This document shows, in pieces, positions 5,754-62,514 of a stretch of DNA of 64,000 bases (the stretch's first letter is position 1; the number at the start of each line of letters is the position of its first letter). The DNA lies in the NCBI GenBank assembly GCA_964613395.1, contig CAZTGO010000010.1, positions 794 to 64,793 of the forward strand, in the 5' to 3' direction. The notes below the pieces were generated by a model that saw only the letters and a program-made list of their open reading frames with translations, ran no database searches and had not been told where the DNA came from. A program made the position numbers and the translations under genes. This stretch comes from an uncultured Candidatus Poseidoniales archaeon. Lineage in GTDB: Archaea > Thermoplasmatota > Poseidoniia > Poseidoniales > Poseidoniaceae.

Positions 5754-6520
5754 GATTTCACCGGCAGGAGGAGTGAAATCAAACGCGGTTGTAAATCTTG
5801 GTCCTTCAACTCCTCAAGGAAACGTTGAGACAGGAGTTCAATGGCATGAATGTTGCATTGTTCGTTGAGTGCTTCAATCGACTCAAAGCCACGACCTCGT
5901 GCATCAACCATTTGCATCGCTTTCTTGTTCCCAATCGTTGGTAGCAATTCAAAGGCGTGCATTTTGAGTGAAATATTTGTTGCAACATTGAAAAATGATT
6001 CAAGGAAATACAGCTCGTGCTTAGATAACATATCAAGAAGAACATGAGGAAGTTGCATGGTTGCAAAACTCGACATCCGGTCTATACGTGCAAGTCCTAC
6101 GATGTGTTGAACTTCTTCACGATCAACAGCACGCTTGCCGATATTGATTCTCTTTGAAGGAGGACATGGTTCACAATCTTTGACTGCTTTTAGTCGGCAT
6201 GGCGTGAGCATTTGTTCTGAAAGCGCGGTGATGATGCCACTATCCAAGTCGTGTTCAACGACGTAAGCCCATGTTTCTGATTCCAATTGTTTCGGACGTT
6301 TCGATTCTTGAGGTTTGACAGATGTATTCCGATGTTCTCTGAATGACCGATTCGATGATTGAGGTCGGCGCTCTTGTCTTGGGTGGCGAGATTGCTGAGC
6401 CTTTGGTTGCCGTTGTGGCATTCTGCCTTCAGCTGGCCGGCTTGGCATAAACCTCGATGTGTCTTCCTGCTTCTTCGGTTGCTTCTTCGGCACGAAGGGG
6501 CGCTTACCATCATTGGACAT
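5750..6520 (-). CDS. DUF655/COG1491-type predicted nucleic-acid-binding protein with long basic N-terminal extension
   Basis: The C-terminal FFNVATNISLKMHAFELLPTIGNKKAMQMV resembles the conserved HhH block of DUF655. Its position between rpoF and ksgA is the conserved archaeal synteny. Confidence 0.8.
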   Translation of the reverse strand: MSNDGKRPFVPKKQPKKQEDTSRFMPSRPAEGRMPQRQPKAQQSRHPRQERRPQSSNRSFREHRNTSVKPQESKRPKQLESETWAYVVEHDLDSGIITALSEQMLTPCRLKAVKDCEPCPPSKRINIGKRAVDREEVQHIVGLARIDRMSSFATMQLPHVLLDMLSKHELYFLESFFNVATNISLKMHAFELLPTIGNKKAMQMVDARGRGFESIEALNEQCNIHAIELLSQRFLEELKDQDLQPRLISLLLPVKS

Positions 6521-7322: not shown

Positions 7323-9053
7323 CTAATCCGCATGAATATCACCTACATCCAACCACAAAACGCGACACTTTGACTTGAGCATGGAGGCAAGGCAAGGCTG
7401 CGTTCTACCGGAATCACCATGAATCGTTTCCTTGACATACGTGCCCGACTCACATCTCAGTGTAAATTCGACTTCTCTCAAACCTTCATCATTCATTTCG
7501 ATCAATGGTGAATGGGCCTCAAAAACTGTTCGCCTCCGAATTAAATCTGCCCGTCTGTGAGCCACTCTGTCGGGTGTACGTTGAGCGATTTTGAGTCCAT
7601 TCAATTTTTCAATGGTCGAGATGATATCATCGTCGCTTGGCAGCTCAAAAAGTGGTGAAGGTCGTCTTTCAAATTCGAGAATTCGCTCGATGATTTGTTT
7701 TTTTGTCCCACTTACTGCAAGTCCATGCTCCTTGGCAATGAGGACCAATTCATCTTTTTTCAGGAGTTCAAGTTGTTCCATTGAATGACCTTCATCGATG
7801 ATAATCTCGTTTTGTATGGGTTTTGTTCGATCTTGACGCCTCTCATTTCGTCTGCGCTTTTTTCGCTTGCCTTTTCTATCTTCATCCTCGTTGGTCAAAT
7901 CGAGTGGAGCGGTGAGTACAGCATATTCCGCCTCGTTCATCTGCTCCAAAACGAATCGGATGGTGTACGACTTTTCCGCAGGCGTATCCTTGATGCGCAC
8001 GACTTCGCTCTTCGAAGATTCTCGTATTGAAGAAACTTCAATATCACCATTTGCGGTTGAATTAATCAGTTCTTCGAGTTGAGCAGTATCGATTTTCCGC
8101 TTTCGTGGGTTTTTCATCTCAATGACAAATGGTCGCCCTCTTCCAAGGCATCGTACATCGATATCTTCTCTCCCCATGCCGTGAAACGCATGCTCATCTG
8201 CATCGAAAATCTCAAGAATCGGGTTACCAATGAGGTCTTGAACACTCTTTTCATACTGTAGACCAGTTTGTTGACAAGATTCGCATTTTCTTCCTTTACA
8301 TAAGCGACATGGCCAGCGTGTTTGTGGGATCCCTCTCGTTAGTTTTCTGTATCGGCCATAAAGATATACGGCACGCAAATCTATCTCAACCGATAATGTG
8401 AGAACGTCCATGAGAACAAGGGCTTCGGGCGATTCATTCACAAGTTTTGATTTCGTCAACCGGTCGCTCAACGTGCGCCCAATGTCGTTGACCAGCGATG
8501 ATTTTAGTGGTTCAGAACCACCTGCTGCGAATTTCTTTCGTAAAGCCTCCTCTGTTTCGAGTTGATCTTTGGGAAAGCGTGCACCAAGTTGAAGTCGTCG
8601 AATGTCGATGTCATCAATTTTCTCAATGATTACATCTGCAAGTACATCCACTTCCTCAAATAAATTCTCACACATTGGGCACAATGGTGTGTCATCTCTA
8701 GCACTGGAAAGATGAGAATCTTGTGTTTCAACTTCGGAACGAATTTCAAGGCCCGATTCTTGAATCGATTGTCCAAATCTTTGTTTCCCTCCGCACCTTC
8801 CTAAACAAGCATCACAACATCCTATCCGAACGAGATGCTTGAGACCTGCTGGGGAGGGGGCCCTCGGAATTTCCTCCATGTGTGTACCGAGTTGGTCTGC
8901 CACTTCCAATGAGCCAGAGTCTAAATCTGTCTCATCAGCCTCTTCGGCCGCAACCTCTTCGACATCGTCCCATAATGAATAGTTGGTTTGACCAAAGCCT
9001 GCAGACGCATACTGCATCCAATCATCGTCGTCTTGGTTCTCCTCATCTTGCAT
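7323..9053 (-). CDS. pus10: tRNA pseudouridine(54/55) synthase Pus10 with lineage-specific insert
   Basis: N-terminal Zn module CCDACLGRCGG...CPMC, then RWPCRLCKGRKCESC, GREDIDVRCLGRGRPFV (catalytic Asp block) and RTPDRVAHRR. The longest ORF starts at TTG 9119; the ATG at 9053 is preferred. Confidence 0.85.
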   Translation of the reverse strand: MQDEENQDDDDWMQYASAGFGQTNYSLWDDVEEVAAEEADETDLDSGSLEVADQLGTHMEEIPRAPSPAGLKHLVRIGCCDACLGRCGGKQRFGQSIQESGLEIRSEVETQDSHLSSARDDTPLCPMCENLFEEVDVLADVIIEKIDDIDIRRLQLGARFPKDQLETEEALRKKFAAGGSEPLKSSLVNDIGRTLSDRLTKSKLVNESPEALVLMDVLTLSVEIDLRAVYLYGRYRKLTRGIPQTRWPCRLCKGRKCESCQQTGLQYEKSVQDLIGNPILEIFDADEHAFHGMGREDIDVRCLGRGRPFVIEMKNPRKRKIDTAQLEELINSTANGDIEVSSIRESSKSEVVRIKDTPAEKSYTIRFVLEQMNEAEYAVLTAPLDLTNEDEDRKGKRKKRRRNERRQDRTKPIQNEIIIDEGHSMEQLELLKKDELVLIAKEHGLAVSGTKKQIIERILEFERRPSPLFELPSDDDIISTIEKLNGLKIAQRTPDRVAHRRADLIRRRTVFEAHSPLIEMNDEGLREVEFTLRCESGTYVKETIHGDSGRTQPCLASMLKSKCRVLWLDVGDIHAD

Positions 9054-9255
9054 TGATTTCACCACGAAGATGGGGCCAACCCCTCTCCTCGCAATTCTCC
9101 CGCCTCGTTCATGATTCAAGAACGCATCGCTTGGTTATGATTTTGAGGTGTGCTTCAGCTATCAAATTTCAAAAATAGTGAAAGTGGAAACATAAGAATC
9201 CAAAGGAGTGCTTCTCTGTGACCCATCTCAATCAAATCTCAATACAGGTCATGGC

Positions 9256-21519: not shown

Positions 21520-21975
21520 ATGCCAGAGCCCCCTCTCCTTCTAGAAAAACAGTCATTTGAGAAGATTGAGAGGCTTATTGAGCAAACCGTCGAGAATGGT
21601 GGAGAGATTCGTTCTGAACTAGCAAAACACTCAACAGGTGTTGATCACACTGTTGAATGGGAGGTTCAGGCGGCTGTTGAGGCATTGAATGTTTTCGGTT
21701 CCCGATGGACGATTGAAATTCTCTCAACGCTATACATAGCAAAAATAATGCGATTTAATGAAATGAAAGTTCTTCTCTCTGGTATTTCTTCACGAACTTT
21801 GTCTGACAAACTGCAGTTCCTCATGAGCGAAGGTCTTGTAGAACGTATTGTCGATGATGGCCCTCCAATTCGAGTCCATTACCAACTTAGCAGTCATGGC
21901 ATCCAGTGCGGGCGATTGCTTTCTCCTTTGGTCGCTCACCTCAAAATTCTTCAAGGTTCAGTCAAAAATTCTTAG
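21520..21975 (+). CDS. HxlR-family winged-helix transcriptional regulator
   Basis: FGSRWTIEILSTL...MRFNEMKVLLSGISSRTLSDKLQFLMSEGLVERIV...VHYQLSSHG is the canonical HxlR pattern. Confidence 0.85.
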   Translation: MPEPPLLLEKQSFEKIERLIEQTVENGGEIRSELAKHSTGVDHTVEWEVQAAVEALNVFGSRWTIEILSTLYIAKIMRFNEMKVLLSGISSRTLSDKLQFLMSEGLVERIVDDGPPIRVHYQLSSHGIQCGRLLSPLVAHLKILQGSVKNS

Positions 21976-21976
21976 A

Positions 21977-22705
21977 ATGAATCAAAAGGCCGATGATTTA
22001 ACATATAGTAGGTCTGAATTCTTCTCCATGGCACTTCTCTCTCAGTGGATGAGACAGCGGCCGTGGATGGCTGCTGGCTTCGCTGGAGCTACAAGCACTG
22101 CCGTCAATATAGCAAACGGCTTCATCACCGCTGCTGGGGCAGTAGGTGCGATGGCTATAGGAAGCATTTCGACACGCTTTCCATCTTCTGAACATCCACA
22201 ACGTCGGAGAATTCTACGGACGCTAGACGAATATCCGGGGTTATGTTATCGTGAATTACAAGCAGTCCTAAATGCTGCAAATGGAACACTACGACATCAT
22301 CTAGATGTACTTCAACAACAAAAAGCGATCACCGTCGTCCCTGTAAACGGCCGGACTTGCTACTTTGCTGGGATGCCAAGTCAAATCGAAGAATTGCGAG
22401 GAGCACTTGTCAGTGTGGAGCGTGCTGCTACATACCTTCCAATCGGATTATCAACGGTGCAGAAATCAATTCTTGAGAGTATTGAATTGGATGGTGTACC
22501 AAAGTCACAAGCCCAATTAGCACGCCGCCTTGGCCGGACGAGAGCAACTGTTCACTCGGCTGTGAAGGTTCTTCGTCGACGAGGAATTCTCCATGAAGAT
22601 GTTTTGGATATCATGCCTCATATCGATCTCTCAATCAGATGGACTGGTCAAAATAAAATCGATTACGAGGCCTACGACGACCGTTACGATGGTCACAAAA
22701 TCTAA
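21977..22705 (+). CDS. Putative regulator with Gly/Ala-rich hydrophobic N-terminus and two winged-helix domains
   Basis: An ArsR-like block RRILRTLDEYPGLCYRELQAVLNAANGTLRHHLDVLQQQKAI and a second HTH KSQAQLARRLGRTRATVHSAVKVLRRRGIL. The track ORF (21848) overlaps hxlR; the in-frame ATG at 21977 is chosen. Confidence 0.6.
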   Translation: MNQKADDLTYSRSEFFSMALLSQWMRQRPWMAAGFAGATSTAVNIANGFITAAGAVGAMAIGSISTRFPSSEHPQRRRILRTLDEYPGLCYRELQAVLNAANGTLRHHLDVLQQQKAITVVPVNGRTCYFAGMPSQIEELRGALVSVERAATYLPIGLSTVQKSILESIELDGVPKSQAQLARRLGRTRATVHSAVKVLRRRGILHEDVLDIMPHIDLSIRWTGQNKIDYEAYDDRYDGHKI

Positions 22706-22762: not shown

Positions 22763-23884
22763 ATGTTCTCACTGCGGTTAACTGAAATCGCACTCCCTGC
22801 TCAAACAAATGATGCGGATGCGCTCATTGATTGGTTGATTGAAACGCTATCACTGGTTCGAAAACGTGGAGATGAAACTTCTGACAAAGGAAGAGCAGGT
22901 CCAGTGCATCGAATGCTCAAAGATTACCTCCTTACTCATCCACAAAAGGGCTGGGATTCTCAAATTCTCGCTCATGAATTAGGGCTTACATCGGCCTCCC
23001 TTAATCACCACCTCAAACGACTTGTTGAGGCTGGAATAATCGGTTTTAGTACGGAAGATAAAGGATGGAGAAAATACTACGTTCGAGGAGGTAGTCTTGT
23101 CAATGCATTGGAGTTCTTTGTTTCAAATTGTTCTATTCTGGCCAAACAACGCCTTGCTTTCCTCGACACATATTGGAAACGCCAACCACAACCACTCCCC
23201 CTCGAATTACCCGAAGAAGAACATGCCTTATTCTCTATAGGCTTGTGTGATATGAGACCAGTTTCAAATCAGACTGGTGCAGACGAACTTAGTCAGTGGA
23301 TGGGTGACTTTGGCTTGCTGGGCGAGAGGCCCGGTAAAGAATTGATGAAGGGGTCCATTTCATCATCCCTATTTCGATGCATGCTTGAACGAAATGAACC
23401 GATATCTCTCGATGAAGCACATGAAATGTTCGGAGGTCAAAAAGCGAGGTTAGGACGAATTATGGAACGATTCCGAAGCAGCGGGATGGTCGAACGTGTG
23501 GCTCGTACAGATCGATTGCCAGTTTCACTATGGTCTGCAATGACAAGCCAATTCCAGAAAAGAGGCGAGGATTGGTTGTTGAAAAAAGGTGGATTTCAGC
23601 GCATCCTTTCCAACGACCAACAGAACAAATTGCTGACCAAACTGCAAAAGAATTCGTTGAGCGTAAACGATGTTGAGACAATCCTCAACGGTACAGATGC
23701 CTCTGAACAAATGTTGTTACTCAACTTACTCGGTGGCCGTTTACCGCTTGGATATCGGCTCGCAGGCCGAGAGCCGAAAGAAATTACAAAACGCGTGATG
23801 TTAAGATTAGAACGTCTTTTTTCAAGGTTTGAACGAGTCGCAAGAAACCTCGACAAATTACTTCTTCATGAGGAAAACACATGA
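22763..23884 (+). CDS. Putative wHTH (ArsR-like) DNA-binding protein, 373 aa
   Basis: WDSQILAHELGLTSASLNHHLKRLVEAGIIGF is followed by a second HTH-like segment (GQKARLGRIMERFRSSGMVERV). GGAG lies upstream of the ATG. The stop overlaps the dus ATG (ATGA). Confidence 0.6.
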   Translation: MFSLRLTEIALPAQTNDADALIDWLIETLSLVRKRGDETSDKGRAGPVHRMLKDYLLTHPQKGWDSQILAHELGLTSASLNHHLKRLVEAGIIGFSTEDKGWRKYYVRGGSLVNALEFFVSNCSILAKQRLAFLDTYWKRQPQPLPLELPEEEHALFSIGLCDMRPVSNQTGADELSQWMGDFGLLGERPGKELMKGSISSSLFRCMLERNEPISLDEAHEMFGGQKARLGRIMERFRSSGMVERVARTDRLPVSLWSAMTSQFQKRGEDWLLKKGGFQRILSNDQQNKLLTKLQKNSLSVNDVETILNGTDASEQMLLLNLLGGRLPLGYRLAGREPKEITKRVMLRLERLFSRFERVARNLDKLLLHEENT

Positions 23885-24912
23885 GTCAATTTATCACCAA
23901 AAAATTGGGAGAGTGGGCTGGGGAACCACGACCTCTCTTTCTTGCACCGATGGCTGGTGTCTCTGATTTACCATTTCGATTGCTTGCAAAAGATTGCGGA
24001 GCTGATGTAACGATCACTGAATTTACGAATTCAACTGCATTGACCCGCGAAGCGGCTGTCTCATGGAGAAAAATGGAGTCGGATGAGCGAGAAATTCCAT
24101 TCATTCCCCAGATTTTCGGAGGAGATTTCGACGACATGAGTACTGCGGCTCAAATGCTGGAATCAAGTGCAGATATTATTGACCTGAATTTTGGCTGCCC
24201 TGCTCCAAAAGTAACCAGAATTTGTGCTGGAGCAGCCCTGATGGGCGAACCAGACACGCTGGTTGAAATGGTGTCGAGGATTGTTGATTCGGTCTCCATC
24301 CCAGTGACTGCAAAGATGAGATTAGGTACAGGAAGAGAAGAAAATAATGCAACTGAAATTTGCCAGCGATTACAAGATGTTGGCGCTCAGCGATTGTGTA
24401 TCCACGGTAGAACCCTCAAACAACGCTACCAAGGGAACGCAAACTGGGTTGCAATCGAAGAAGCCGTTCATGCTGTTGAAGTTCCAGTCGTAGCGAATGG
24501 TGATGTGGTCGATGCAGCATCCGCAGCAGCATGCTTTGAACAAACTGAAGCCTCTGGTCTAATGATTGGTCGTGGTGCTATTGGAAGACCTTCTGTTTTC
24601 GCTGATATCAAAGTCGGCCTCGGTTGGATGAAAGAGGAAGAATTACCTTGGGTCAAAGATGAACCAAGATGGTTTGAGATGAATCGAGAACAACAACAAT
24701 TCAAAACTCGTCAATGGTGTTGGGATCGATATATTGACTATGCAAATCAAACAATTGGAATTCAACCTCGATGGATGCAACGACATGCGGTCGCTTTTAC
24801 CAAAGGTTTACCCGGTTCAAAAAAAGTGAGATCAATCATGCATAAACAAGCCACTCCAGATGCAATGGCAGCGGAAATCAGCAGATTTCTCAAAGATGGT
24901 TTTTCGCTCTAG
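23881..24912 (+). CDS. dus: tRNA-dihydrouridine synthase (Dus family, FMN TIM barrel)
   Basis: LAPMAGVSDLPFRLL...DLNFGCPAPKV (catalytic Cys block)...CIHGRT...NGDV. Confidence 0.9.
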   Translation: MSQFITKKLGEWAGEPRPLFLAPMAGVSDLPFRLLAKDCGADVTITEFTNSTALTREAAVSWRKMESDEREIPFIPQIFGGDFDDMSTAAQMLESSADIIDLNFGCPAPKVTRICAGAALMGEPDTLVEMVSRIVDSVSIPVTAKMRLGTGREENNATEICQRLQDVGAQRLCIHGRTLKQRYQGNANWVAIEEAVHAVEVPVVANGDVVDAASAAACFEQTEASGLMIGRGAIGRPSVFADIKVGLGWMKEEELPWVKDEPRWFEMNREQQQFKTRQWCWDRYIDYANQTIGIQPRWMQRHAVAFTKGLPGSKKVRSIMHKQATPDAMAAEISRFLKDGFSL

Positions 24913-25517
24913 AATGTTGAAAGCCACTGGTCGAGATCTTGTTCGGAAGCCCATTGTTCATCGGTGGTTGCACCACGAATTTTCAAAACCTCACGTGCGA
25001 GCAAGTAGTACACAAGTGCAAGAGAGCGTCGACCTTTGTTGTTTGCGGGTAGTGCAACATCCACATTTCTGAGGTTGTTGTTTGCATCAACAATGCCAAC
25101 AATAGGAAGGCCTGAGTTGACTGCTTCAATGAGTGCTTGTTGGTCGGCAGCGGGGTCTGTAACGAATAAGATGTCTGGTTCGACATACGAACGAAGCGAT
25201 GGGTTAGTGAGTGAGCCTGGAATAAATCGGCCGACAGATGCGTGTGCACCAATTGCTTCAGCAAACATTCGAGCAGGTCGTTGTCCATATTGACGAGCGG
25301 AGACGACCATGATTGAAGGTGGGTCGTATGTGTTGAGCATGGCTGCAATCGAACGAATTCGGTGGTCTGTCATGTTCACATTGAGCATGTACAAGCCGTC
25401 TTCTCGCACTCTCTCGATGAATCTTTGCATGTCTGCACTCTTTTGTTGAGTACCAATATTCACTGCGTTTTCTTCATAGAGGTCGGGTGCAATTAGCAAC
25501 TCAGTTTCTTCACTCAT
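24909..25517 (-). CDS. rps2: 30S ribosomal protein uS2 (archaeal S2/SA type)
   Basis: GRFIPGSLTNP...EPDILFVTDP...EAVNSGLPIVGIVDANNNLRNVDVALPANNKGRRSLALVYYLLAREVL. The track start is TTG 25523; an ATG lies at 25517. Confidence 0.95.
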   Translation of the reverse strand: MSEETELLIAPDLYEENAVNIGTQQKSADMQRFIERVREDGLYMLNVNMTDHRIRSIAAMLNTYDPPSIMVVSARQYGQRPARMFAEAIGAHASVGRFIPGSLTNPSLRSYVEPDILFVTDPAADQQALIEAVNSGLPIVGIVDANNNLRNVDVALPANNKGRRSLALVYYLLAREVLKIRGATTDEQWASEQDLDQWLSTF

Positions 25518-25593
25518 GTGCAATCCTCGGGGTTTGAGCCACCAACAGCCCCTATTAAACCGCTTCGCAGGATGAAATCGTTAGAGGGTTTTG

Positions 25594-26802
25594 ATGCAAG
25601 CAGATTTATGTTTCATAACTTTGCAAGAAAACTTGGGGGGTGCTTTCTTGAGTGTGGTCTACGAGAGGATAAAAGCGTCTCCAAACGAGTTTGGGTATTT
25701 CCAAGATGATTCGGGCAATGTCCTTGAAGTCAGTGCGAGCGATGTTGAGAAGTTCACATATTGCCCATTATCTTGGGCTTTGTCAAAAAGTGGAGTTGTC
25801 GGAGAAGGAGCATCGCTCACCGAAGGAATCGAACGAAACGAAGAGATTTCAAAGGCCGCATTAGAACTCACAGAAAACCAAATCCGTGAACGCAGAAACC
25901 TTGAGATTTGGACTTGGTGGGTTGGGATTGTGATTATTCTCTGCATCGATGGATTTGTTTTTCTCAACATTGAAAACTTTCAAGCAAAAACCAACGAAAT
26001 CACAAGATACCTTGCACTTTGGGCACTCAGTTCACTCATCCTTGCAATTTTGACAATCCTTTTACCCTGGCGAAGTTGGATTAATTTAGAGAAATCAAAC
26101 AACGATGACCCTGTCCTCATCGAGCCAATTTTTGAACCACCTGATTTTATCGGTGGTTGGTTTGAAGGGGGTAGGATCGAATCTGCATTACTCATTGGGG
26201 CCATCATATTAGCCCTCCATTCCATAGCATTACAGTGGGCAAACGATAAGGAAAAAGCTGCGTTTATTCTTACCGTAACTGCACTCCTATGGACCTTGCT
26301 TGCTACTTATAGACTCAAAAAAGCATTGATTGCCCACGAACAGATGATCAAATTGAGCACTGTCATTGGTATCGACTTGAGCACACAAGTTGTGTACGCA
26401 GATTCAGATGATGTGAAAGAAGCATTACTCATCGACCAAGAATCTGGCCTGCGTGGTCGACCAAATCAAATTGTCATTATCGACCAAGAATTCATTCCTG
26501 TTGAACAAAAGTCTGGAAGACCTCCCAAATTTCCACACGAGAGTCACAAACTTCAAGTTTTATCTTATCTCAAACTTGTCGAAGTTTCGACTGGCCATGC
26601 ACCTACTTACGGGGTGATTAATTACGGTAATGAGAAGGTGTTCAAGGTGTTGTGGAATGATGAAAATAAGAAACTACTTGATGATCAAATCAAGAATATA
26701 CATCACGCCATGGTGTTTGGAGACGTTCACAGGAACCATGAACGAATCGGTAAATGCAAGAACTGCTCGAGGGCACATGCGTGTCCAGAACGACTTCATT
26801 AG
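25594..26802 (+). CDS. Cas4-family PD-(D/E)xK nuclease with four internal transmembrane helices (orphan, not CRISPR-linked)
   Basis: N-terminal FTYCPLSW (Cys1), LRGRPNQIVIID...PVEQKSG (motifs II/III), QVLSY (QxxxY) and CKNCSRAHAC (CxxCx5C). Between Cys1 and the core lie four hydrophobic helices, about aa 105-240. Confidence 0.7.
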   Translation: MQADLCFITLQENLGGAFLSVVYERIKASPNEFGYFQDDSGNVLEVSASDVEKFTYCPLSWALSKSGVVGEGASLTEGIERNEEISKAALELTENQIRERRNLEIWTWWVGIVIILCIDGFVFLNIENFQAKTNEITRYLALWALSSLILAILTILLPWRSWINLEKSNNDDPVLIEPIFEPPDFIGGWFEGGRIESALLIGAIILALHSIALQWANDKEKAAFILTVTALLWTLLATYRLKKALIAHEQMIKLSTVIGIDLSTQVVYADSDDVKEALLIDQESGLRGRPNQIVIIDQEFIPVEQKSGRPPKFPHESHKLQVLSYLKLVEVSTGHAPTYGVINYGNEKVFKVLWNDENKKLLDDQIKNIHHAMVFGDVHRNHERIGKCKNCSRAHACPERLH

Positions 26803-27332
26803 AAGCAACTGTCCTCGAGAGGATACTGAATGCATGATTTTTCAACGGTGACACGCAAACTGAATTCGTCTTTTATTTGGTTGACAAAACTCTCTCCATA
26901 ACCACGTGCTTCAACATTCAGAACCCACTCGCCCATGGCAAATGACGGGGCTGGCAACAGTTGCTTTTCAGTCGGTTCATAGTCCGAACTTACATCCTCC
27001 TGCCATTGTACAACGCCCTCTGCATCTGTGAGAGAAGCCCGAACAAATTGGGTTTGGTTAAGAAGTGGTGGAGCGTTGAAATTCACTTTCAGATAGATAC
27101 TGATGCGGTTTGTCGAGTCATCAACAATGAATGTCTGTCTCGAGGTAAATGGTTGAGCCTCAATGGTGTCCCATACTTGCGAGATTGATATTTTTTCATA
27201 ACGAATACTCGGGATTGCTGGCTCTCTAAGTTCTTCGATTGACTCTCGTGCAAGGATGAGGCCCATACATCCGCTTAGCATTGATGTTGTGAGCAACAAT
27301 ATGGCTGCGATAATAGTAATTCTTCGCACCAT
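26799..27332 (-). CDS. Putative lipoprotein, unknown function
   Basis: Signal peptide with lipobox MVRRITIIAAILLLTTSMLSGC. The mature part is 155 aa and rich in beta-strand propensity. Confidence 0.65.
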   Translation of the reverse strand: MVRRITIIAAILLLTTSMLSGCMGLILARESIEELREPAIPSIRYEKISISQVWDTIEAQPFTSRQTFIVDDSTNRISIYLKVNFNAPPLLNQTQFVRASLTDAEGVVQWQEDVSSDYEPTEKQLLPAPSFAMGEWVLNVEARGYGESFVNQIKDEFSLRVTVEKSCIQYPLEDSCF

Positions 27333-27480: not shown

Positions 27481-30264
27481 TCATTCGAATTGAGCACCAC
27501 AGACGTTGCACTCATTTGCACTCGCATCGATCTCGGCACCACAAGCACCACATTCGGCCGTTTCCTTCTTTTGTCGAGCCGGCCTTCTTCGGTTTGGACG
27601 TTTTCGCTTAGGTGATAATTCGTCATCTACATCATCACCAAGTTTTGACATTGGCATATCATCTTCTTCAATTGTAAAGTCCATTGAGGCTTCTTGAACC
27701 TCATTTCCTGCGAGGGAGGAATCACTGATTTGCATGCCCACTTGCACTTTTTCACCAGGCCGTACACCCTCTTCACCAGTAATTTCGAAGAGTTGTTCAC
27801 GGATATGAGCATCGGAGGCTGAGAGTTCAGAATCGTCTTCTTTGACGGCCTTCATCGATTTCTTACCTTTGATAATCGCATCGATGTCGTGCTCTGCAGA
27901 GGAGGATTTTCGAATTGTTGTGGTCACTTGAGATTTGTATGCCTCAAGTTCTTCTTCGGTCATTTCTTCTTCTGCAATCACGTCTGCATTTCTTCGGTCA
28001 TATGCAGCTTCAACTTCGGCTTCAGCAGCTTCAATGTTTTCATCCCATTCTTCCTCAAGTTGTACTTCATCATATCCAAATTCTCGAATAGTTTCGTCAA
28101 AGTTTTCTTGACCTGTAACGATTTCATCCTCGTCTTCTTCTTCATCTTCTGGGAGTGCGACGAAGGTTTTCTGAGCCTTTGGTTCTCTTCGTTCGCGGCG
28201 TTCAAAGAATGAGGCGACGTCTTGAATTGCACCACAATAAGCACAATTCTCGATGAGATCTGGAATAGACTCACCACATTCGTGACAATCGTGGAATTGA
28301 TTTCTTGCCTTCTTCAAATTAAATGAACAATGTGGACAACGGTCTTCGCCTCCTTCTAACTCCCCATCACATGCAGGACAGTAATCGAATATATCTCGTT
28401 CAACTTCCTCTTCTCTCTCGCGTGTGAGCAGATATGCTGCGATGAGAATACCGACGAGAACTAGTGCACTGAATCCTAAGATTGTTGCAGTTCCCGAGGA
28501 AGATGCGTCGCCTTCCGCATTGTTCCCATTGGGGTTAATGGTTTGGTATGACCTTGAGAGTGAATCAATGGCATTCGTGTTGTCGGGAATAATTTTGATG
28601 TTTGAAATTGAGGCGAGCGCCATAAATTGACACTGAATGTTCTTTCGTTCCCTTTCTTCATCAATTGAAAGTGAGACAACGATATCAGTGTCACCTTGTT
28701 CATCGATGCATGTCATGTTGATTGGACCCGTTGACGATTGCGCTGTTACATCGATTGAAAGAGTATACATATTTCCATGCCTGAGGGGGAATGTTGCATT
28801 TTCTCCTTCTTCGTCGAGAACTTGCAATGATGCATAATCCCATTTGAGTTTCAATGGTGAATTAACATTGATTGAACCTGTTGATACCGAGTTGGACAAA
28901 TCTGCATCGAAACTACCCTGGTCAGCAACCCATGATGCGTTGAAAACAGCAATGTGCTGCCCTAAGCCAGCATCCAATTCAACTTGGACGAATTCTGTTT
29001 TTCCAGCTTCAAATGGTGCAATTCGAATGGAGAGTACAGGGCCATCATCAAATTTGTAGTACAAAAAGCCACTCACATCTAAATCACCATTGTTTGTTAT
29101 GGTCATCAACCAAGATACGCTTTCACCAGCGTCAACTGAGGTTACATTTGCAATTGGTGGGTCCAACACTACGTCTGGAACTTCACTAATATTCAATGTC
29201 GTTGTCGCTACATCGTTATCCGTTCGCTCTTGCACAATACCTGCATCGTTAATTGAGTTGATTTTTGCAGTGACAATATGTTGGCCCGGAGGAAGTAAAT
29301 CAAGTGAGAATTCGTTGGTGAATGGCTGCTCAACCAATGCGCCACCCGACAAAGTAACCTGGAAATGATTGGTCCTCAGTGTACCACCTGATGGATTTGG
29401 AATTTCCAGTTGAAGTGAAACCGTGGTCGTCCCCTCGCCATTACTGCGAACGAGTGCACCCGAAACACTCCATGGACCTTCGAAAACATTGCCAACGGTT
29501 GTGATTGTAATGCCATCTTTGAAGTACAAATCCATGTGTGGAATGACGGTGATTTCGAGCGTTTTTGCTTTGTTTGTCTCTGAACCCTCCTCAATATCGT
29601 TGTTGATATCGGGTGTTGCAATGATTTCATGGGTGCCTGTTTGAGGTGCAATCGTTGATACATTGAGCCACGTTTCTTCACCTGCAGCAAGCGCTGGTGT
29701 TGCGAGATACTGGTCTGTCTGATCGGGCACTTGAAGGAGGAGTGTGCTTTGCTCAGCGTCAATTGTACCCGTATTTTTCACTCGCATTGCAACCTCAATT
29801 GTGTCTCCTGAACGAATTGAATCCGAAGGCGTCGTCTCGAGGTCCATCACTCGTAGTGTTGGTAATCCTAAGACATTGAAATCGTAGTAAAAACTAGCAG
29901 CACTCGAACCATCTGCGAATCTAAACCAAAGTCTCTGGTCGCCTTCGGGTAACTTATCCCATGTTGCACTGACGATTTCTGATTCTCCTGCTTGAATGTC
30001 GATGACATTACCGCCACCCATCAATAATTCTCCATTTAGAGCACTCTTGAAAAATTCATATTGAACATCGAAAACATCGACCGTACCGACATTTGTGAGG
30101 ATGATGGAAAAGGTCGCCTCACCGCCGACAACCGGTTGATTTGGTGTCATGTTTAGTTGTGCGGATGATGACTCAATGTTTCCACTCGATTCGGCTGAAC
30201 CCGTATGAATTAGAAGCGGGAGTAGAAATAAACATGCAAGAAGCACGCCTTTCTTCTGCTGCAT
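27481..30264 (-). CDS. Type-I membrane surface protein: signal peptide, multiple CARDB-like beta-sandwich repeats, TM helix, 313-aa cytoplasmic tail with three zinc ribbons
   Basis: Signal MQQKKGVLLACLFLLPLLIHTGSA. Repeated motifs of the form GE..tf...v.N.G...v (for example GGEATFSIILTNVGTVDV and GESVSWLMTITNNGDLDV). TM ILGFSALVLVGILIAAYLL. Tail ribbons are CPACDG..CPHC, CHECG..CAYCG and CGACG..CNVCG. Confidence 0.8.
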   Translation of the reverse strand: MQQKKGVLLACLFLLPLLIHTGSAESSGNIESSSAQLNMTPNQPVVGGEATFSIILTNVGTVDVFDVQYEFFKSALNGELLMGGGNVIDIQAGESEIVSATWDKLPEGDQRLWFRFADGSSAASFYYDFNVLGLPTLRVMDLETTPSDSIRSGDTIEVAMRVKNTGTIDAEQSTLLLQVPDQTDQYLATPALAAGEETWLNVSTIAPQTGTHEIIATPDINNDIEEGSETNKAKTLEITVIPHMDLYFKDGITITTVGNVFEGPWSVSGALVRSNGEGTTTVSLQLEIPNPSGGTLRTNHFQVTLSGGALVEQPFTNEFSLDLLPPGQHIVTAKINSINDAGIVQERTDNDVATTTLNISEVPDVVLDPPIANVTSVDAGESVSWLMTITNNGDLDVSGFLYYKFDDGPVLSIRIAPFEAGKTEFVQVELDAGLGQHIAVFNASWVADQGSFDADLSNSVSTGSINVNSPLKLKWDYASLQVLDEEGENATFPLRHGNMYTLSIDVTAQSSTGPINMTCIDEQGDTDIVVSLSIDEERERKNIQCQFMALASISNIKIIPDNTNAIDSLSRSYQTINPNGNNAEGDASSSGTATILGFSALVLVGILIAAYLLTREREEEVERDIFDYCPACDGELEGGEDRCPHCSFNLKKARNQFHDCHECGESIPDLIENCAYCGAIQDVASFFERRERREPKAQKTFVALPEDEEEDEDEIVTGQENFDETIREFGYDEVQLEEEWDENIEAAEAEVEAAYDRRNADVIAEEEMTEEELEAYKSQVTTTIRKSSSAEHDIDAIIKGKKSMKAVKEDDSELSASDAHIREQLFEITGEEGVRPGEKVQVGMQISDSSLAGNEVQEASMDFTIEEDDMPMSKLGDDVDDELSPKRKRPNRRRPARQKKETAECGACGAEIDASANECNVCGAQFE

Positions 30265-36534: not shown

Positions 36535-38175
36535 TCAGGCACCTCCTTCAAATCCACCGAGGATAGGTAAGATCACGGAATCAAACATTTGGTTTGTCCA
36601 ATCGCTCATCATATCGAGGGCAATCCATGGCAAGATACCAAACAGGATGGTGAAAAGAGCGAGAATAAGCATTGCAAATTTCTCAGCGTTTGTGATATCT
36701 GGTATCGCATGGCCAGCCATTGAGGCAGGAGGTTGTGTCTCTTCTCCACCTTCGAAAATTGTACGTTGCATCGACCAGAGATAGTACGCTGCTGTGACGA
36801 CAAGAACGAGCAAAGGACCAGCCATCCACCAAATACTCCAACCTTCTGCGACGATGAAATACCAGAGTGCGATGAACATCATAATTTCAGCCACGAACCC
36901 TGCGAGAAGAGGCAATCCAAGTGAGGCCATCCAAGCGAACATCATTGAGGTAGCGAGCCAAGGCGAGTGTTTTGCCATGCCACGCATGGCACCAATCTCC
37001 ATCGAATGATAGTGATGCTTGAATGCACCACAAACAGCGAAGAGCATAGGACTGATGATGCCGTGTGCAAACATCATGAAAAGAGCTGCAGCCCACCCAA
37101 GTGGTTGCATGGTCGCAACACCGATGAGAATGACACCCATGTGGGATACTGATGAGTATGCGACCATTTTCTTAAGATTGGTTTGCCCAAGACAGACAAT
37201 CGCACCCCATACAAGTGACACCATACCAAACAACATGAGGGCGAGTTGGAAGGATTCCATTGCGTGCGGGAAAAGTGAAAACGGAAGTCGGAACATACCG
37301 TAAGCACCCATTTTCAACATAACACCAGCTAGCAACATCGATCCACCTGTTGGGGCTTGAACGTGTGCATCTGGTAACCAAGTGTGGAATGGCACAGACG
37401 GTAATTTGACGAGGAATCCGAGCATGAGCATAACGAAGAGGATCTTTTGAACACTTTCGCCTAAGAACCAACCGTTTGTGTTTGCAATCATCGATGCATC
37501 GATAATCGTTGGTATGTCAAACGACCTGTTGGTCATTGAACCAGCATAATTTAGCGGCGTGGTTGTATCTTGAAGGAAATACAATGTCACTAAGCCGAGC
37601 AACATGATAACTGAGGCTGAAAATGTGTAAATGAAGAACTTTTGAGATGCATATTTGCGATCATCTCCTCCCCATTTGAGGATGAGGAAAAACATCGGGA
37701 TGAGTGTTAATTCCCAGAACACATAGAACATAAACAAGTCGAGTGCTACGAAAACACCGATTAGTGCACCACCCATCATGAGAAGAAGCGGGAAGTATGT
37801 CGCTGCTGATTTCTCATGCCATGTCGCGATAATTGTCACTGGAAGAAGGAAGGTTGTGAGCCATACCATTGGGAATGAAAGAGCATCAAGGCCAACACTC
37901 CAGTAAATCCCTAATGATTCGATCCAAAGATAACGTTCTTGGAATTCATATGTGTTGAAATTGATACCTTCCCATCCTTCAAAATCACCAAAGTATTCGA
38001 AGAACATCCCTGTTGTTAATGCGAGCATAATCAGCGAAAAGACGAGCGAAGCCATTCGGATGATTGGTCCAACACGCTGTTTTTTCTCCTCTGTTAAGTT
38101 TGACACAAACATAAGTAAAATCAAACTTGATGCAAGTGGGAAAGCGATGAGAGGTAGAGAAATGTAATCGGTCAA
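36535..38175 (-). CDS. nuoM: NADH-quinone oxidoreductase subunit M
   Basis: PFHTWLPDAHVQAPTGGSMLLAGVMLKMG is the NuoM/ND4 signature. The TTG start overlaps the nuoL stop (TTGA). Confidence 0.9.
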   Translation of the reverse strand: MTDYISLPLIAFPLASSLILLMFVSNLTEEKKQRVGPIIRMASLVFSLIMLALTTGMFFEYFGDFEGWEGINFNTYEFQERYLWIESLGIYWSVGLDALSFPMVWLTTFLLPVTIIATWHEKSAATYFPLLLMMGGALIGVFVALDLFMFYVFWELTLIPMFFLILKWGGDDRKYASQKFFIYTFSASVIMLLGLVTLYFLQDTTTPLNYAGSMTNRSFDIPTIIDASMIANTNGWFLGESVQKILFVMLMLGFLVKLPSVPFHTWLPDAHVQAPTGGSMLLAGVMLKMGAYGMFRLPFSLFPHAMESFQLALMLFGMVSLVWGAIVCLGQTNLKKMVAYSSVSHMGVILIGVATMQPLGWAAALFMMFAHGIISPMLFAVCGAFKHHYHSMEIGAMRGMAKHSPWLATSMMFAWMASLGLPLLAGFVAEIMMFIALWYFIVAEGWSIWWMAGPLLVLVVTAAYYLWSMQRTIFEGGEETQPPASMAGHAIPDITNAEKFAMLILALFTILFGILPWIALDMMSDWTNQMFDSVILPILGGFEGGA

Positions 38176-40709
38176 GACATCACCCCCCAGATGAGAGCAA
38201 ACAACATCAGTGTACCAACCGCAGCCATGAGGATGTAATCTCGAGCAGAACCAGTTGTCAACTTTCTCAACGATGTCGAAGCGCTTTGAGATGTAGATTC
38301 AATGGTCTTGATAGCCCCGTCAATGAATTTGCTGTCTGCATGGGCTGCTTTGAGTGAAAACGCAGCCACAATTTTGAGCATCGCCATGTCGTAATAATGG
38401 TCGAAGTACAATCGATTCTGCAATGCTCTTGAAAGACTTGAGGTGGCAAAAGCTGAGTTGTCCCATGAATATCGTCCTTTGATTGCTGCATTGAGCATCA
38501 AGATTGGCGTAAACCACGGTTTTGCAGTTTCTCCCTCATCCAAAGCTCCACCGTAGAGTGAGAGTGCCAAACCAGGTCCAACGATTGCACCGAGGAATAT
38601 GGCGATGTATGTTAGGGTGAAGAAGAACATGTCATGGTTGGCAAACGCATGCCCAAGTTCGTATCCAATTCCTTCGAAAAGTCCCTTCTCCGACATGAGG
38701 GCGTATCCAGAATCTGGTGCCCAGTGGGTAAAGCCCATGCCTGCGAAGAGGATTCCGCCTAAGGTCACAAAAGTGAGCGTGAAAAGTGGTATTTTGATCC
38801 ATGTATTCGTTGGACCAACGTGTGCTGCAACTTCGTTGTTTGGTGAACCTGCAAAGGTCTTGAGCCACATTCTCGACATGTAAAATCCAGTCATGGCTGC
38901 ACCGAGGAGAACACATGCTGCAGGGAAGAAGAATCGTGGGTCTTCAAGGCCAACTCGCCATGCGTTTGCAATGATTCCTTCCTTGGACCAAAATCCACCG
39001 ATGAGAGGGAAACCCATGATTGAGAGTGAACCAACCAGCATAGCCGTAGCCGTAATTGGCATCTTGGAGGCTAAACCGCCCATATTTTCCATCGATTGTG
39101 CATCGAAGTGGTCGTCATGGTGGTCATCGTGTTCGTGTTCTTCGTAGGTTTTGCCCTTGATTTTTGCAAGAACAATATCAAGTTCTGGAACGTTGATTGT
39201 GCCGTTACCGTCAAGGTCAACAGCTTTCATGAGGTCACCCATTTCCCAAGGTGGAAGGTCAGCAACTTCTGTATTCTTTAGCGCAGTTTGGAATTCAAAC
39301 ATGTCGATTTCTCCCGAGCCATCGAGGTCAATGGTTTTGAAAAATTCAAATGTGCTCAATTTCTTTGAAGCCAAGTAATCCGATAACATGTAGAGTTCCT
39401 TGGGTGTGTGATGATGGTCGTCATGATGCAAGTGGTGATGTGCATGATGGACTTCATGGATTACCGCACCACTTGCCATGAACAGCATACCCTTTGCCAT
39501 TGCGTGATTGAAGAGATGGAAGAGTGCTGCACCAAAGGCGATGATGACGATGTAATGTGCGTCGTCGTCGTGATGCCAGTCAAGTGAGTTTGCTAGCCAC
39601 AATGCACAGCCAAGGCCCGTGAAGATGTAAGCAAGTTGCGACATGGTCGAATAGGCGAGTACTTTCTTGAGGTCCATCTGAACAAAAGCAATACTTGCTG
39701 CCATCACAGCGGTGATTCCACCAATGCTTGCAATAATGAAGGCGAGGTCAACAAGTTCACCATGCATTGCTTCAGCACCAAAGAATGGGAACATTCGAGC
39801 GACAAGGTAGAGGCCTGCGTTCACCATTGTTGCTGCGTGAATGAGAGCAGAGACCGGTGTTGGACCTTCCATTGCATCTGGGAGCCAGACATGCAGTGGG
39901 AATTGTGCAGATTTACCAACTGCCCCAATGAACATCATTCCAAGAGCCCACTGAAGAGAAGCAGGGTCAACGGCTGCGATATTATCTGAATCAAAGACAA
40001 CTGCATAATCAAGGGAGCCAAACAGATGCCAAAGCATAGCAAGACCGACCATCAGGAACACGTCACCAACACGGGTTGTGAGGAAAGCCTTCTTTGCGGC
40101 ATATGCAGCACTAGGCCGTTCGTAATAGAAGCCGATGAGCAAATACGAACAAAGACCCATTAATTCCCAGAAGATGAACAACCATAGGAATGAATCTGCG
40201 AGAATCATACCGAGCATTCCTGCACAAAAGAGCACGAATTCTGCATAGAATCGATGATTTCGATTATCGTTGATCGGGTCGGTGTTCATGTATCCGATCG
40301 CAAAGGTGTTGATGAGCAAGCAAAGGAAAGATGCGATGAACAACAACATGACGGTGATGTGGTCGATGTAGAGGCCAAATCCAAATGAAATTTCTGTTGT
40401 TGTTGCTCCGCCATTCCACATCGCAGAGGAGAACCAGTCGAACACGTGCAGGGCACTTTTACTGTCATCGCCATAGGCTCCGATGTAGTCTTTGATGAGC
40501 AAAAGAGCAAGGAGGAGGCTCGTAGCCATAGTAACGAGTGCGAAAATTCCACCTTCTTTGAACGTGGAAACCCAAACTTTGTTGCCATTGAACAATCTTC
40601 CGAACAGGAGAATGATTGGGAAGGCAATCATTGGAAGGAAGACAATGTATGGTGCAAATTCAATAACACTGCTGTGGATAGTTTCTGTTGTACCTGTTGA
40701 ACCCATCAT
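38172..40709 (-). CDS. nuoL: NADH-quinone oxidoreductase subunit L, enlarged (845 aa) by an EF-hand/His-rich insert
   Basis: FPLHVWLPDAMEGPTPVSALIHAATMV (NuoL/ND5 signature), ...ASGAVIHE [insert] ...MGGLASKMP, and a long C-terminal region with extra TMs. Confidence 0.9.
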   Translation of the reverse strand: MMGSTGTTETIHSSVIEFAPYIVFLPMIAFPIILLFGRLFNGNKVWVSTFKEGGIFALVTMATSLLLALLLIKDYIGAYGDDSKSALHVFDWFSSAMWNGGATTTEISFGFGLYIDHITVMLLFIASFLCLLINTFAIGYMNTDPINDNRNHRFYAEFVLFCAGMLGMILADSFLWLFIFWELMGLCSYLLIGFYYERPSAAYAAKKAFLTTRVGDVFLMVGLAMLWHLFGSLDYAVVFDSDNIAAVDPASLQWALGMMFIGAVGKSAQFPLHVWLPDAMEGPTPVSALIHAATMVNAGLYLVARMFPFFGAEAMHGELVDLAFIIASIGGITAVMAASIAFVQMDLKKVLAYSTMSQLAYIFTGLGCALWLANSLDWHHDDDAHYIVIIAFGAALFHLFNHAMAKGMLFMASGAVIHEVHHAHHHLHHDDHHHTPKELYMLSDYLASKKLSTFEFFKTIDLDGSGEIDMFEFQTALKNTEVADLPPWEMGDLMKAVDLDGNGTINVPELDIVLAKIKGKTYEEHEHDDHHDDHFDAQSMENMGGLASKMPITATAMLVGSLSIMGFPLIGGFWSKEGIIANAWRVGLEDPRFFFPAACVLLGAAMTGFYMSRMWLKTFAGSPNNEVAAHVGPTNTWIKIPLFTLTFVTLGGILFAGMGFTHWAPDSGYALMSEKGLFEGIGYELGHAFANHDMFFFTLTYIAIFLGAIVGPGLALSLYGGALDEGETAKPWFTPILMLNAAIKGRYSWDNSAFATSSLSRALQNRLYFDHYYDMAMLKIVAAFSLKAAHADSKFIDGAIKTIESTSQSASTSLRKLTTGSARDYILMAAVGTLMLFALIWGVMS

Positions 40710-49909: not shown

Positions 49910-50001
49910 TGGCGACAATGCTTTCGCTCCTCCCATGAAAACGGGTGAAGGTTCTCCTATCAAAAGCCTCGCCTTCACCGAATCAAATTGACCACGAATC
50001 A

Positions 50002-54576: not shown

Positions 54577-54592
54577 TGTGTTCACTTATCCT

Positions 54593-55144
54593 TTAACCAA
54601 GTGGCCAAATTTTGCCATCCGCCTCATCAAAAAACATTTCTTGGGACCATTCACCAACATGATGATACCACTGTTGCTGACGTCGCTCTCCATCGTAATC
54701 TTTCCATTGCAGTTCAATGTGAATAACATAGTCATCCCAGACTGAATACCCAATAACGTGCATTTCCAGTTCGTCACCAGCGAGAGAGGAATGTGAGGAT
54801 ATTCGTTCGACATCTATTTGTGTTGATTCAAGGATGATGCCATCGATTGTTTCGAATGAGATTTGGAGGGATACATCTGTGATATCGCGACTACCATCGT
54901 TGTGAATTTGAGTCATCATGAGATGGCCGCTACGTTGCATATATCGAGTTTCAACCATCACATCGTCCCTCGGCAGAACATAATACCAACCCGACAAAAG
55001 AACACCGAGTACGAGCAAAATCATGACGCCAGCAAAACCTACTCTGGTTGGAGTCACTTCCCGACGAACTGTTTCAAGGAGTTTCGCAGCATCTTGGGCG
55101 GCTGTCCAATCATCATCATCCTGATTCATGGCTTTTTGTAACAT
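54593..55144 (-). CDS. Single-pass membrane protein with small extracytoplasmic beta-rich domain
   Basis: 183 aa with TM FAGVMILLVLGVLLSGWYYVL. It is wedged 4 nt after the 1555-aa gene and 7-16 nt (depending on start choice) before the S8 gene. Confidence 0.55.
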   Translation of the reverse strand: MLQKAMNQDDDDWTAAQDAAKLLETVRREVTPTRVGFAGVMILLVLGVLLSGWYYVLPRDDVMVETRYMQRSGHLMMTQIHNDGSRDITDVSLQISFETIDGIILESTQIDVERISSHSSLAGDELEMHVIGYSVWDDYVIHIELQWKDYDGERRQQQWYHHVGEWSQEMFFDEADGKIWPLG

Positions 55145-55148
55145 GTGA

Positions 55149-62468: not shown

Positions 62469-62514
62469 AGATGCGCCTTCACAGTTTTTGCTTTCAAAGA
62501 TTTGCTCAATTGCT

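Follow-up and report, generated by a model that had tools for sequence, protein, structure and literature searches.

Cas4 proteins are known either as small, soluble nucleases that take part in CRISPR adaptation or as stand-alone "solo" enzymes. What, then, is a Cas4-like gene doing in a marine archaeon when its nuclease domain is interrupted by a block of transmembrane helices, and what could such a protein do at a membrane? The gene lies in a 64,000-nucleotide stretch of DNA (hereafter the window) from an uncultured Candidatus Poseidoniales archaeon (contig CAZTGO010000010.1), a member of Marine Group II, and we refer to it and its relatives as TM-Cas4. It is the Poseidoniales ortholog of a Thermoplasmatota-wide, vertically inherited membrane Cas4 family. 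The protein contains a Cas4/RecB-type domain that is complete but divided in two by a membrane block; we regard this architecture and the family membership as close to certain.

Membrane helices interrupt a complete Cas4 domain

The TM-Cas4 open reading frame (ORF) may begin at TTG 25591 or ATG 25594, and residues are numbered here from the ATG. An initial annotation of the window had listed the Cas4/RecB landmarks in order, together with four cysteines, and each landmark codon was confirmed when re-read from the DNA (Table 1). Profile searches agree. PF01930 (Cas_Cas4) matches residues 296-397 at 34.9 bits and passes its cut-off of 22.7, while TIGR00372 matches residues 252-398 of the full protein at 45.9 bits, below its equivalog cut-off of 65. 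With the membrane block removed, the window protein spans positions 2-179 of the 180 in TIGR00372 at 49.3 bits, again below 65; the four-helix relative P0144, spliced in the same manner, reaches 83 bits and passes. Pfam and TIGRFAM matches of the window protein cover the nuclease domain only and include no helicase family.

A search of PDB sequences with the full-length protein was uninformative because the insert breaks the alignment, and its match to an Mrs2 coiled-coil/transmembrane region (E = 0.66) was set aside as spurious. Splicing out the insert solved this problem. Window residues 44-100 were joined to residues 261-402, along with the equivalent columns of 19 relatives, and the resulting profile matched type I-C Cas4 (8d3l, E = 3.6e-9, profile positions 6-193 to chain residues 12-202), 4r5q (E = 2.4e-8), Sso0001 (4ic1, E = 4.4e-7) and Cas4-Cas1 (7mi4, E = 2.3e-6). 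Inspection of the alignment reveals that YCPLSW falls on the first Cas4 cysteine, the family G..xH on the Cas4 G..xH histidine, GRPD on GRAD (Asp99) of Sso0001, PVExK on EIK, and CxxCSRRxxC on the C-terminal cysteine triad of Cas4. C57, C388, C391 and C397 are invariant in three family alignments and align with the Cas4 cysteine positions in 8d3l. K306 is likewise invariant, and E304, Q321 and Y325 are invariant or at least 90% conserved across the alignments.

Structure prediction gives the same assignment. The AlphaFold2 model used here was built from a 69-sequence phylum-wide alignment and has a predicted local distance difference test (pLDDT) score of 84.1 and a predicted template modelling score of 0.78; a model from 20 Marine Group II sequences was discarded (pLDDT 64.6, with the active site and cysteine region below 50). 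In the retained model a helix at residues 73-125 bears position 82 and continues directly as transmembrane helix 1, a second at residues 219-258 forms transmembrane helix 4 and the cytoplasmic stalk, and a beta core occupies residues 265-353, with helices at 316-333 and 356-375. The best Foldseek match in the PDB is type I-C Cas4 (8d3l_J, E = 3.8e-4, target-normalised TM-score 0.49, root-mean-square deviation (rmsd) 2.9 Å over 146 columns), followed by Dna2 (5EAX), Cas4-Cas1 (7mi5; rmsd 2.1 Å over 119 columns), MGME1 and AdnAB (6PPU). TM-scores for Dna2 and AdnAB, at 0.10-0.26 when normalised to these long targets, mean that a small part of each is covered. Both kinds of search thus assign the C-terminal domain to a nuclease fold, as the initial annotation had supposed.

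The Cas4 domain is interrupted by ~160 residues (101-260) that carry four transmembrane helices. The four-helix insert first placed at nucleotides 25903-26310 matches the hydrophobic segments of Table 1, whose 19-residue Kyte-Doolittle means are 1.7-2.4 and which behave as transmembrane helices. Foldseek found no significant match to the membrane part in the PDB, and the block by itself matches no Pfam family; a WLS-like_TM match to the window protein (E = 0.013) fell under its cut-off and was dropped. The same layout is kept at full length in hundreds of homologs, so the architecture is not a product of chance. Two further explanations, a frameshift and the fusion of two genes, were rejected, given an unbroken ORF conserved in hundreds of genomes.

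Repeated hairpins and membrane topology

Among 192 full-length relatives, 162 have four transmembrane helices, 11 have two and 13 have eight; the other six return counts of 0, 1, 3 or 7, consistent with threshold noise. Total lengths are ~260-285 residues for two-helix, ~325-410 for four-helix and ~500-600 for eight-helix proteins. Hairpins 1 and 2 of the four-helix proteins align to one another with an hhalign probability of 98.1% (E = 1e-13, 54 columns), a score that the composition bias of membrane segments raises somewhat. The alignment is in register, matching Glu-Arg where helix A begins and Trp-Leu within helix B. The membrane block is therefore a hairpin of ~56 residues present in one, two or four copies. 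The loop between the two hairpins (residues 161-193) is long in Marine Group II only, where it carries conserved PWR and GGW motifs; residues 170-188 within it are a low-confidence region of the model (pLDDT below 50).

An even number of helices, whether two, four or eight, places both halves of the Cas4 domain on one side of the membrane, as a single reassembled domain needs. The density of Lys plus Arg is 0.14-0.28 in the N-terminal flank, the even-numbered loops and the C-terminal flank, versus 0.07-0.14 in the odd-numbered loops, which are short (7-12 residues); this contrast is clearest in the two-helix and eight-helix groups. The positive-inside rule puts both termini inside. We consider a cytoplasmic orientation of both Cas4 halves very probable, a placement that would also suit the assembly of an Fe-S cluster and contact with DNA. 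A Tat-type export signal, suggested by RERRN before helix 1, was considered and rejected: the Arg pair is not kept in proteins from outside Marine Group II, and a domain made from both termini could not be exported as a unit.

Two metal ligands are replaced in the window lineage

The metal ligands of Sso0001 (4IC1), as summarised in PMC13621843, are His62, Asp99, residue 113 and the carbonyl of Lys115. At motif II, where Asp99 falls, the TM-Cas4 family consensus is GLRGRPDQIVIID (GRPD). The initial annotation had noted Asn at this position, and the window protein does read GRPN; what escaped it is that the change is specific to one clade and that a second accompanies it, Asn82 in place of His. 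GRPN occurs in the window protein and in relatives at 78-100% identity (P0001-P0009, fragments, and genomes L007, L035, L008 and L009, the last labelled Poseidonia sp.), while the 71%-identical P0010 and all members outside the clade keep the Asp. At the other metal-ligand column His is present in 212 of 228 sequences, and Asn is found solely in the window clade. All clade members carry both N82 and N291, encoded by AAC and AAT in all five genomes. The clade has only five substitutions of its own at positions that other Marine Group II proteins conserve to at least 95%, and the pair accounts for two of them. That D291N is confined to this clade and accompanied by H82N points to a loss of catalysis. 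Catalytic impairment of the Asn/Asn clade is, in our judgement, probable: in the window protein the cluster site is predicted to be intact and the metal site damaged.

Selection on the clade is strongly purifying. The ratio of nonsynonymous to synonymous substitution rates (dN/dS) is 0.05-0.07 within it, with synonymous sites near saturation. The four cysteines, E304, K306, Q321 and Y325 are all retained, and identity across the nuclease core is 80.9% in the Asn/Asn clade compared with 84.6% for His/Asp pairs of equal divergence.

Could the window protein nonetheless remain an active nuclease, with Asn82/Asn291 or Asp297 holding the metal together with Glu304 and its preference or specificity perhaps changed? 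Asn is able to coordinate divalent metals, H318 is kept along with the other active-site residues just named, the core of the clade is still highly conserved, and non-canonical catalytic determinants have been reported for a Solo-Cas4 (PMC12501428). We nevertheless find continued activity unlikely. Loss of the equivalent Asp alone, in the D99A variant, leaves Sso0001 with no nuclease activity (PMC3466216), and here two ligands changed together, in the window clade only. Nor does Asp297, the nearby Asp of "IID" that might have served as a substitute, offer a way out. In the model it occupies the turn that joins strands 292-296 and 299-306, so that the length of the beta hairpin separates it from residues 291 and 304-306, and it is not conserved outside Marine Group II; it is therefore no credible replacement ligand.

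A further possibility is that a catalytically silent Cas4 domain serves as a redox or oxygen sensor, its Fe-S cluster reporting oxidative state through rigid helices to the membrane bundle. Such a role would account for four cysteines that stay invariant even where the metal ligands are gone; the helix bearing residue 82 runs continuously into transmembrane helix 1, helix 4 extends into the stalk, and Marine Group II inhabits oxic, sunlit water. Nearly the whole family, however, keeps a complete nuclease active site, and the protein has neither an output domain nor a conserved signalling partner. The Fe-S cluster of AddB and Cas4 is, moreover, regarded as structural or DNA-binding. A sensor role is thus highly improbable.

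TM-Cas4 is a Thermoplasmatota-wide family

Database searches returned 889 homologs of the window protein. The best 120 of these are full-length (384-423 residues) save for one 249-residue fragment, carry the automatic labels "Cas4" or "Dna2/Cas4 domain-containing protein", and belong, where named, to Poseidoniaceae and Thalassarchaeaceae, both Marine Group II families. A profile search of 1.84 billion cluster representatives gave 1287 matches, 543 of them below 1e-10. Among the best 150 matches, all full-length proteins above ~110 bits share one layout, namely the N-terminal YCPL cysteine, the membrane block, the nuclease core and CxxCSRRxxC, with P0177 uncertain.

One genome per GTDB species was scanned in two separate searches, which returned relatives in 410 and 312 species genomes; the family is hence present in at least 410. 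Their titles name Poseidoniales, Thermoplasmata, Methanomassiliicoccales, Aciduliprofundum, Halarchaeoplasma and Saliniplasma, and all listed loci but three are from Thermoplasmatota. The names of cluster members, from which the taxonomy of the two-helix group was taken, agree with this distribution. For the genera Aciduliprofundum and Methanomassiliicoccus, the homologs L080 and L148 are encoded in metagenome-assembled genomes. The three other loci (L028, L049 and L054) come from bins labelled Salipiger, Verrucomicrobiales and Rhodobiaceae, yet their contigs are Marine-Group-II-like, and binning contamination is the probable cause. The "orphan" of the initial annotation is accordingly an orphan in one sense: it is not CRISPR-associated, but neither is it an isolated oddity, being one member of a phylum-wide family with two, four or eight helices.

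Among soluble proteins, the nearest to TM-Cas4 are ordinary Cas4 proteins of ~170-180 residues, for example from Anaerolineales, and they are uninformative on the origin of the family. No TM-Cas4 relatives were found among IMG/VR viral contigs or GenBank phages. Our literature search found no publication describing a membrane-inserted Cas4, and a term search within PMC5704561 found no membrane form of solo-Cas4. The sequences themselves are already public under automatic Cas4 labels. What is new relative to the searchable literature is the membrane architecture, its modularity of one, two or four hairpins, a distribution that so far appears limited to Thermoplasmatota, and the Asn/Asn clade.

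Genomic context

The window follows the gene order conserved in Marine Group II: HxlR, helix-turn-helix (HTH), a 371-residue protein, Dus and rps2 (-), then TM-Cas4 (+), and beyond it a small protein (-), the CARDB/zinc-ribbon gene (-), a protein of ~600 residues, KH/PNO1, RIO1 and eIF1A. The gene thus sits between rps2 and a lipoprotein-like gene, just where the initial annotation had put it, and the 927-residue CARDB protein adjoins TM-Cas4 in every Marine Group II locus examined. The winged-helix parts of both HTH proteins match the HTH portion of Csa3/CasR models; the CARF sensor domain is absent.

Table 1. TM-Cas4, its landmarks and its neighbours in the window.
Feature	Nucleotides	Strand	Residues	Remarks and basis
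TM-Cas4 gene	25594..26802	+	402 from ATG	TAG stop 26800-26802; ORF list, full-length homologs, codons re-read
N-terminal Cas4 segment	25723..25893	+	44-100	Contains Cys57 and Asn82; block-removed profile alignment, column counts
Cys57 in FTYCPLSW	25762-25764	+	57	First Fe-S ligand position
Asn82 (AAC)	25837-25839	+	82	At the His metal-ligand column
Transmembrane hairpin 1	25903..26073	+	104-160	Helices ~104-126 and 138-160; hydropathy, AlphaFold2 helices 73-125 and 133-156, hhalign repeat
Inter-hairpin cytoplasmic loop	26074..26172	+	161-193	Alignment, Lys+Arg counts
Transmembrane hairpin 2	26173..26322	+	194-243	Helices ~194-216 and 221-243; hydropathy, AlphaFold2 helices 194-217 and 219-258
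Cytoplasmic helical stalk	26323..26373	+	244-260	Extends helix 4; AlphaFold2 helix 219-258
C-terminal Cas4/RecB nuclease core	26374..26799	+	261-402	Pfam, TIGRFAM and PDB profile matches; Foldseek Cas4/Dna2
Asn291 (AAT) in GRPN	26464-26466	+	291	Motif II Asp position
E304-Q-K306	26503-26511	+	304-306	Motif III ExK
Q321-VLS-Y325	26554-26568	+	321-325	QVLSY, QxxxY motif
CKNCSRAHAC	26755-26784	+	388-397	C388xxC391x5C397
rps2	24909-25523	-		Pfam; Dus upstream
177-residue protein	26799-27332	-	177	Signal peptide and LSGC lipobox-like motif; 3' neighbour of TM-Cas4
CARDB protein	27481-30264	-	927	Membrane anchor, double zinc ribbons, very acidic tail
Two adjacent helix-turn-helix proteins	21848-22705, 22763-23884	+		In Marine Group II synteny

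The initial annotation had reported no CRISPR array or cas gene, and our scans agree. The window has no CRISPR-like array, no Rfam match and no second Cas4-like ORF, and no cas gene was found among its ORFs scanned against Pfam or PADLOC. PADLOC placed Cas4 models on the TM-Cas4 protein alone and found no defence neighbours. Related Marine Group II loci with Pfam-annotated genes likewise have no CRISPR-cas neighbourhood. Conserved synteny, the lack of relatives in the viral collections scanned and the lack of defence neighbours in the window together indicate a vertically inherited chromosomal gene, not part of a mobile defence island.

Outside Marine Group II, 77 unique loci have no universal partner and few recurrent neighbour clusters, and none of the annotated clusters is a cas gene. 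An upstream neighbour is present in 70 of these loci, and downstream counts are out of 75. Directly upstream and on the same strand lie a TPD/PF14811 gene (a CDIN1-like PD-(D/E)xK nuclease) in 19/70 loci, an eIF2B/MtnA-like gene in 10/70, and a gene for a secreted protein with Lamin-tail domains (LTD), PLD domains and a C-terminal membrane anchor in 9/70. The downstream neighbour on the opposite strand is GlmS in 23/75 and a small membrane protein in 18/75. These patterns follow lineages and therefore represent few independent events. As a weak hint, the upstream nuclease and phosphodiesterase neighbours of some orders point to a DNA-processing pathway.

Two of these upstream genes merit description in their own right. 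In L058 the TPD gene (5185-6000, +) encodes a 271-residue homolog of human CDIN1/C15orf41, a predicted PD-(D/E)xK nuclease, and is separated from TM-Cas4 by a gap of 3 nucleotides, an arrangement that suggests the two nucleases are encoded as an operon in one Thermoplasmata lineage; a search of the window and of 56 Marine Group II loci for such a partner returned none. The LTD-PLD proteins of L074 (3420-6026, +) and L069 (4095-6143, +) each have two PLD (DrmC-like) domains and may be extracellular nucleases. Their genes lie directly 5' of TM-Cas4, and in L074 the two genes overlap.

Neighbours of this kind bear on a defence role at the envelope, in which a membrane-anchored, stand-alone Cas4 exonuclease would degrade the free ends of entering viral or plasmid DNA in archaea that mostly lack CRISPR. 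The membrane location of TM-Cas4, the absence of a CRISPR array from the window, and the DrmC-like PLD or PD-(D/E)xK (TPD) gene directly upstream at some Thermoplasmata loci would all suit such a role, and repeated recruitment of the Cas4 family for defence is on record (PMC5704561), including ACE1 with Argonaute (PMC12094033). Set against this are the same housekeeping locus across Marine Group II and the presence of the gene throughout the phylum. The stable housekeeping context, the lack of any relative in the viral collections searched and the PADLOC result all speak against TM-Cas4 being a typical defence gene. A clade that lost two metal ligands while under strong purifying selection is also hard to square with a function that depends on cutting. 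On balance we hold envelope defence to be improbable.

DNA uptake or scavenging has been weighed in a similar manner. An oligomeric ring would here let the hairpins line a conduit through the membrane, and the cytoplasmic nuclease would process one imported strand, as in ComEC. Oligomers have precedent in the family: the title of Lemak et al. 2013, as cited in PMC13621843, describes Sso0001 Cas4 as toroidal, and the Solo-Cas4 of M. mazei assembles into a complex of ~318 kDa (PMC12501428). The membrane-anchored, secreted LTD-PLD gene that overlaps or abuts TM-Cas4 in 9/70 loci is compatible with this proposal, as are conserved polar residues of the hairpins, namely a Glu at each hairpin start and, in Marine Group II, Asp119 and His209. 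However, a helix number that varies among two, four and eight, together with external loops of ~7-12 residues, would be unusual for a dedicated channel. The conserved neighbourhoods contain no partner ATPase or pilus gene, and the window clade has lost two metal ligands. We accordingly rate uptake as very unlikely.

Other features of the window

Several genes of the window unrelated to TM-Cas4 were recorded along the way. An 845-residue NuoL/Mrp-type antiporter-like subunit (Proton_antipo_M; 38172-40709, -) carries an EF-hand motif at about residues 455-509, which is unusual in a complex-I-like membrane subunit. Pus10, a tRNA pseudouridine synthase (7323-9119, -), has a SAP DNA/RNA-binding domain at residues 450-485. 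A series of very large predicted surface proteins occupies 47060-62612 (-), among them an S8 subtilase with CARDB (1527 residues), a PKD protein (906 residues), an Ig-like protein (994 residues) and a 1555-residue ORF at 55149-59816 with no Pfam match.

A working model for TM-Cas4

How these results might combine into a mechanism can be set out as follows. The Cas4 fold would be encoded in two pieces, an N-terminal one with Cys1 and the His-ligand helix and a C-terminal one with motif II, ExK, QxxxY and three cysteines. Both pieces would be cytoplasmic and would reassemble as one Cas4 domain with a four-cysteine cluster site. Two continuous helices would hold that domain under the inner face of the membrane and enter a bundle made of the duplicated two-helix hairpin. 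Across the family as a whole, TM-Cas4 most likely acts on DNA ends as a nuclease tethered to the membrane, and the family would be a stable housekeeping component that operates outside CRISPR adaptation and is not a mobile defence gene. In the window lineage, H82N and D291N, the retained Fe-S cysteines, E304, K306 and QxxxY, and strong purifying selection make DNA binding without efficient cutting the most likely outcome. That is to say, the protein would bind DNA, probably ends, at the membrane and act as a tether or scaffold.

We assign a probability of about 0.5 to the combined statement that the protein is membrane-tethered and cytoplasm-facing, that it binds or processes DNA ends, and that it is probably catalytically disabled in this lineage. 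The cellular role as proposed is tentative at best. A number of points weigh against this account. Knowledge of the whole TM-Cas4 family here comes from sequence and predicted structure. The clustering of the four cysteines is taken from Cas4 homology and from pLDDT values above 90 in both cysteine-bearing segments, and the placement of N82 and N291 in the active site from homology and high pLDDT. Some activity, residual or altered, may persist, because Asn can be a weak ligand for Mg2+ or Mn2+ and both E304 and K306 are still in place; work on the M. mazei Solo-Cas4 shows that catalysis in the Cas4 family sometimes departs from textbook motif logic (PMC12501428). The core of the Asn/Asn clade is barely less conserved than that of His/Asp pairs, and any signal of relaxed constraint is therefore weak. 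The housekeeping interpretation draws on synteny and on absence from mobile elements, and a predicted nuclease or phosphodiesterase lies directly upstream in 28/70 of the other Thermoplasmata loci (TPD 19, LTD-PLD 9), an arrangement compatible with defence or DNA scavenging as well.

A more ambitious proposal, which we offer as a long shot, is that TM-Cas4 proteins constitute a membrane DNA machine, in which rings like the Sso0001 toroid would sit on a collar of hairpin helices and either thread DNA through the membrane or anchor and process its ends there. If this were true, the machine might serve, for example, environmental DNA uptake or attachment of the chromosome to the membrane, and the Asn/Asn clade would have given up cutting DNA in favour of holding it.

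The family has significance beyond that proposal. A complete Cas4 domain in the membrane, encoded by a single conserved chromosomal gene through one archaeal phylum, implies an undescribed DNA transaction at the archaeal membrane and provides a concrete, testable case for solo-Cas4 biology. Replacement of two ligands under purifying selection would amount to a natural separation-of-function variant, and comparison with His/Asp orthologs could reveal which part of the function requires DNA cleavage. An integral-membrane Cas4 as a core gene of a very abundant group of ocean archaea would, we expect, surprise specialists.

Comparison with known systems

TM-Cas4 shares with characterised Cas4 proteins (Sso0001, 4IC1; Pcal_0546, 4R5Q; type I-C, 8D3L; Cas4-Cas1, 7MI4) the RecB-like PD-(D/E)xK fold and, across the family, the N-terminal cysteine, G..xH, GRxD, ExK, QxxxY and the C-terminal CxxCx5C in the same order. 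It differs in the ~160 residues of hairpins and stalk inserted between the His helix and motif II. A typical Cas4 is a compact, contiguous, soluble domain of ~160-220 residues, whereas the domain of the window protein is interrupted and membrane-integrated, has Asn at the equivalents of His62 and Asp99, and scores below the TIGR00372 cut-off. In contrast to CRISPR-associated Cas4, it has no cas1, cas2 or CRISPR context. In this respect it resembles Solo-Cas4, described in PMC12501428 and PMC5704561, with a Cas4-family gene away from CRISPR-cas loci and a four-cysteine cluster site; it is likewise outside mobile elements, with no relatives in IMG/VR or among GenBank phages. The described Solo-Cas4 proteins are soluble, while TM-Cas4 is an integral-membrane protein, found in one phylum as far as seen and in housekeeping synteny.

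ComEC provides a functional analogy only. It too is polytopic and combines a membrane part with a nuclease domain that acts on DNA at the membrane, but the two are not homologous: ComEC has a nuclease of the metallo-beta-lactamase type and an unrelated channel domain, and nothing here points to a pore. The "iron-staple" nucleases AddB, Dna2 and Exo5 are closer, each having a RecB nuclease domain stabilised by an Fe-S cluster, and in AddB-type nucleases the cluster or its domain is required for binding to DNA ends. Unlike AddB and Dna2, the window protein is far smaller, lacks a helicase or soluble accessory domain, and has the membrane insert.

The nearest precedent for the window lineage itself is TP1, the nucleocapsid protein of TTV1, a Cas4 derivative that lost catalysis and took on a DNA-binding role (PMC4625639), and thus an inactivated Cas4 retained as a non-enzymatic DNA binder. 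TP1 is truncated, viral, and without the Fe-S site and QhxxY, in contrast to the window protein, which is full-length, cellular and membrane-embedded and keeps the cysteines, ExK and QxxxY.

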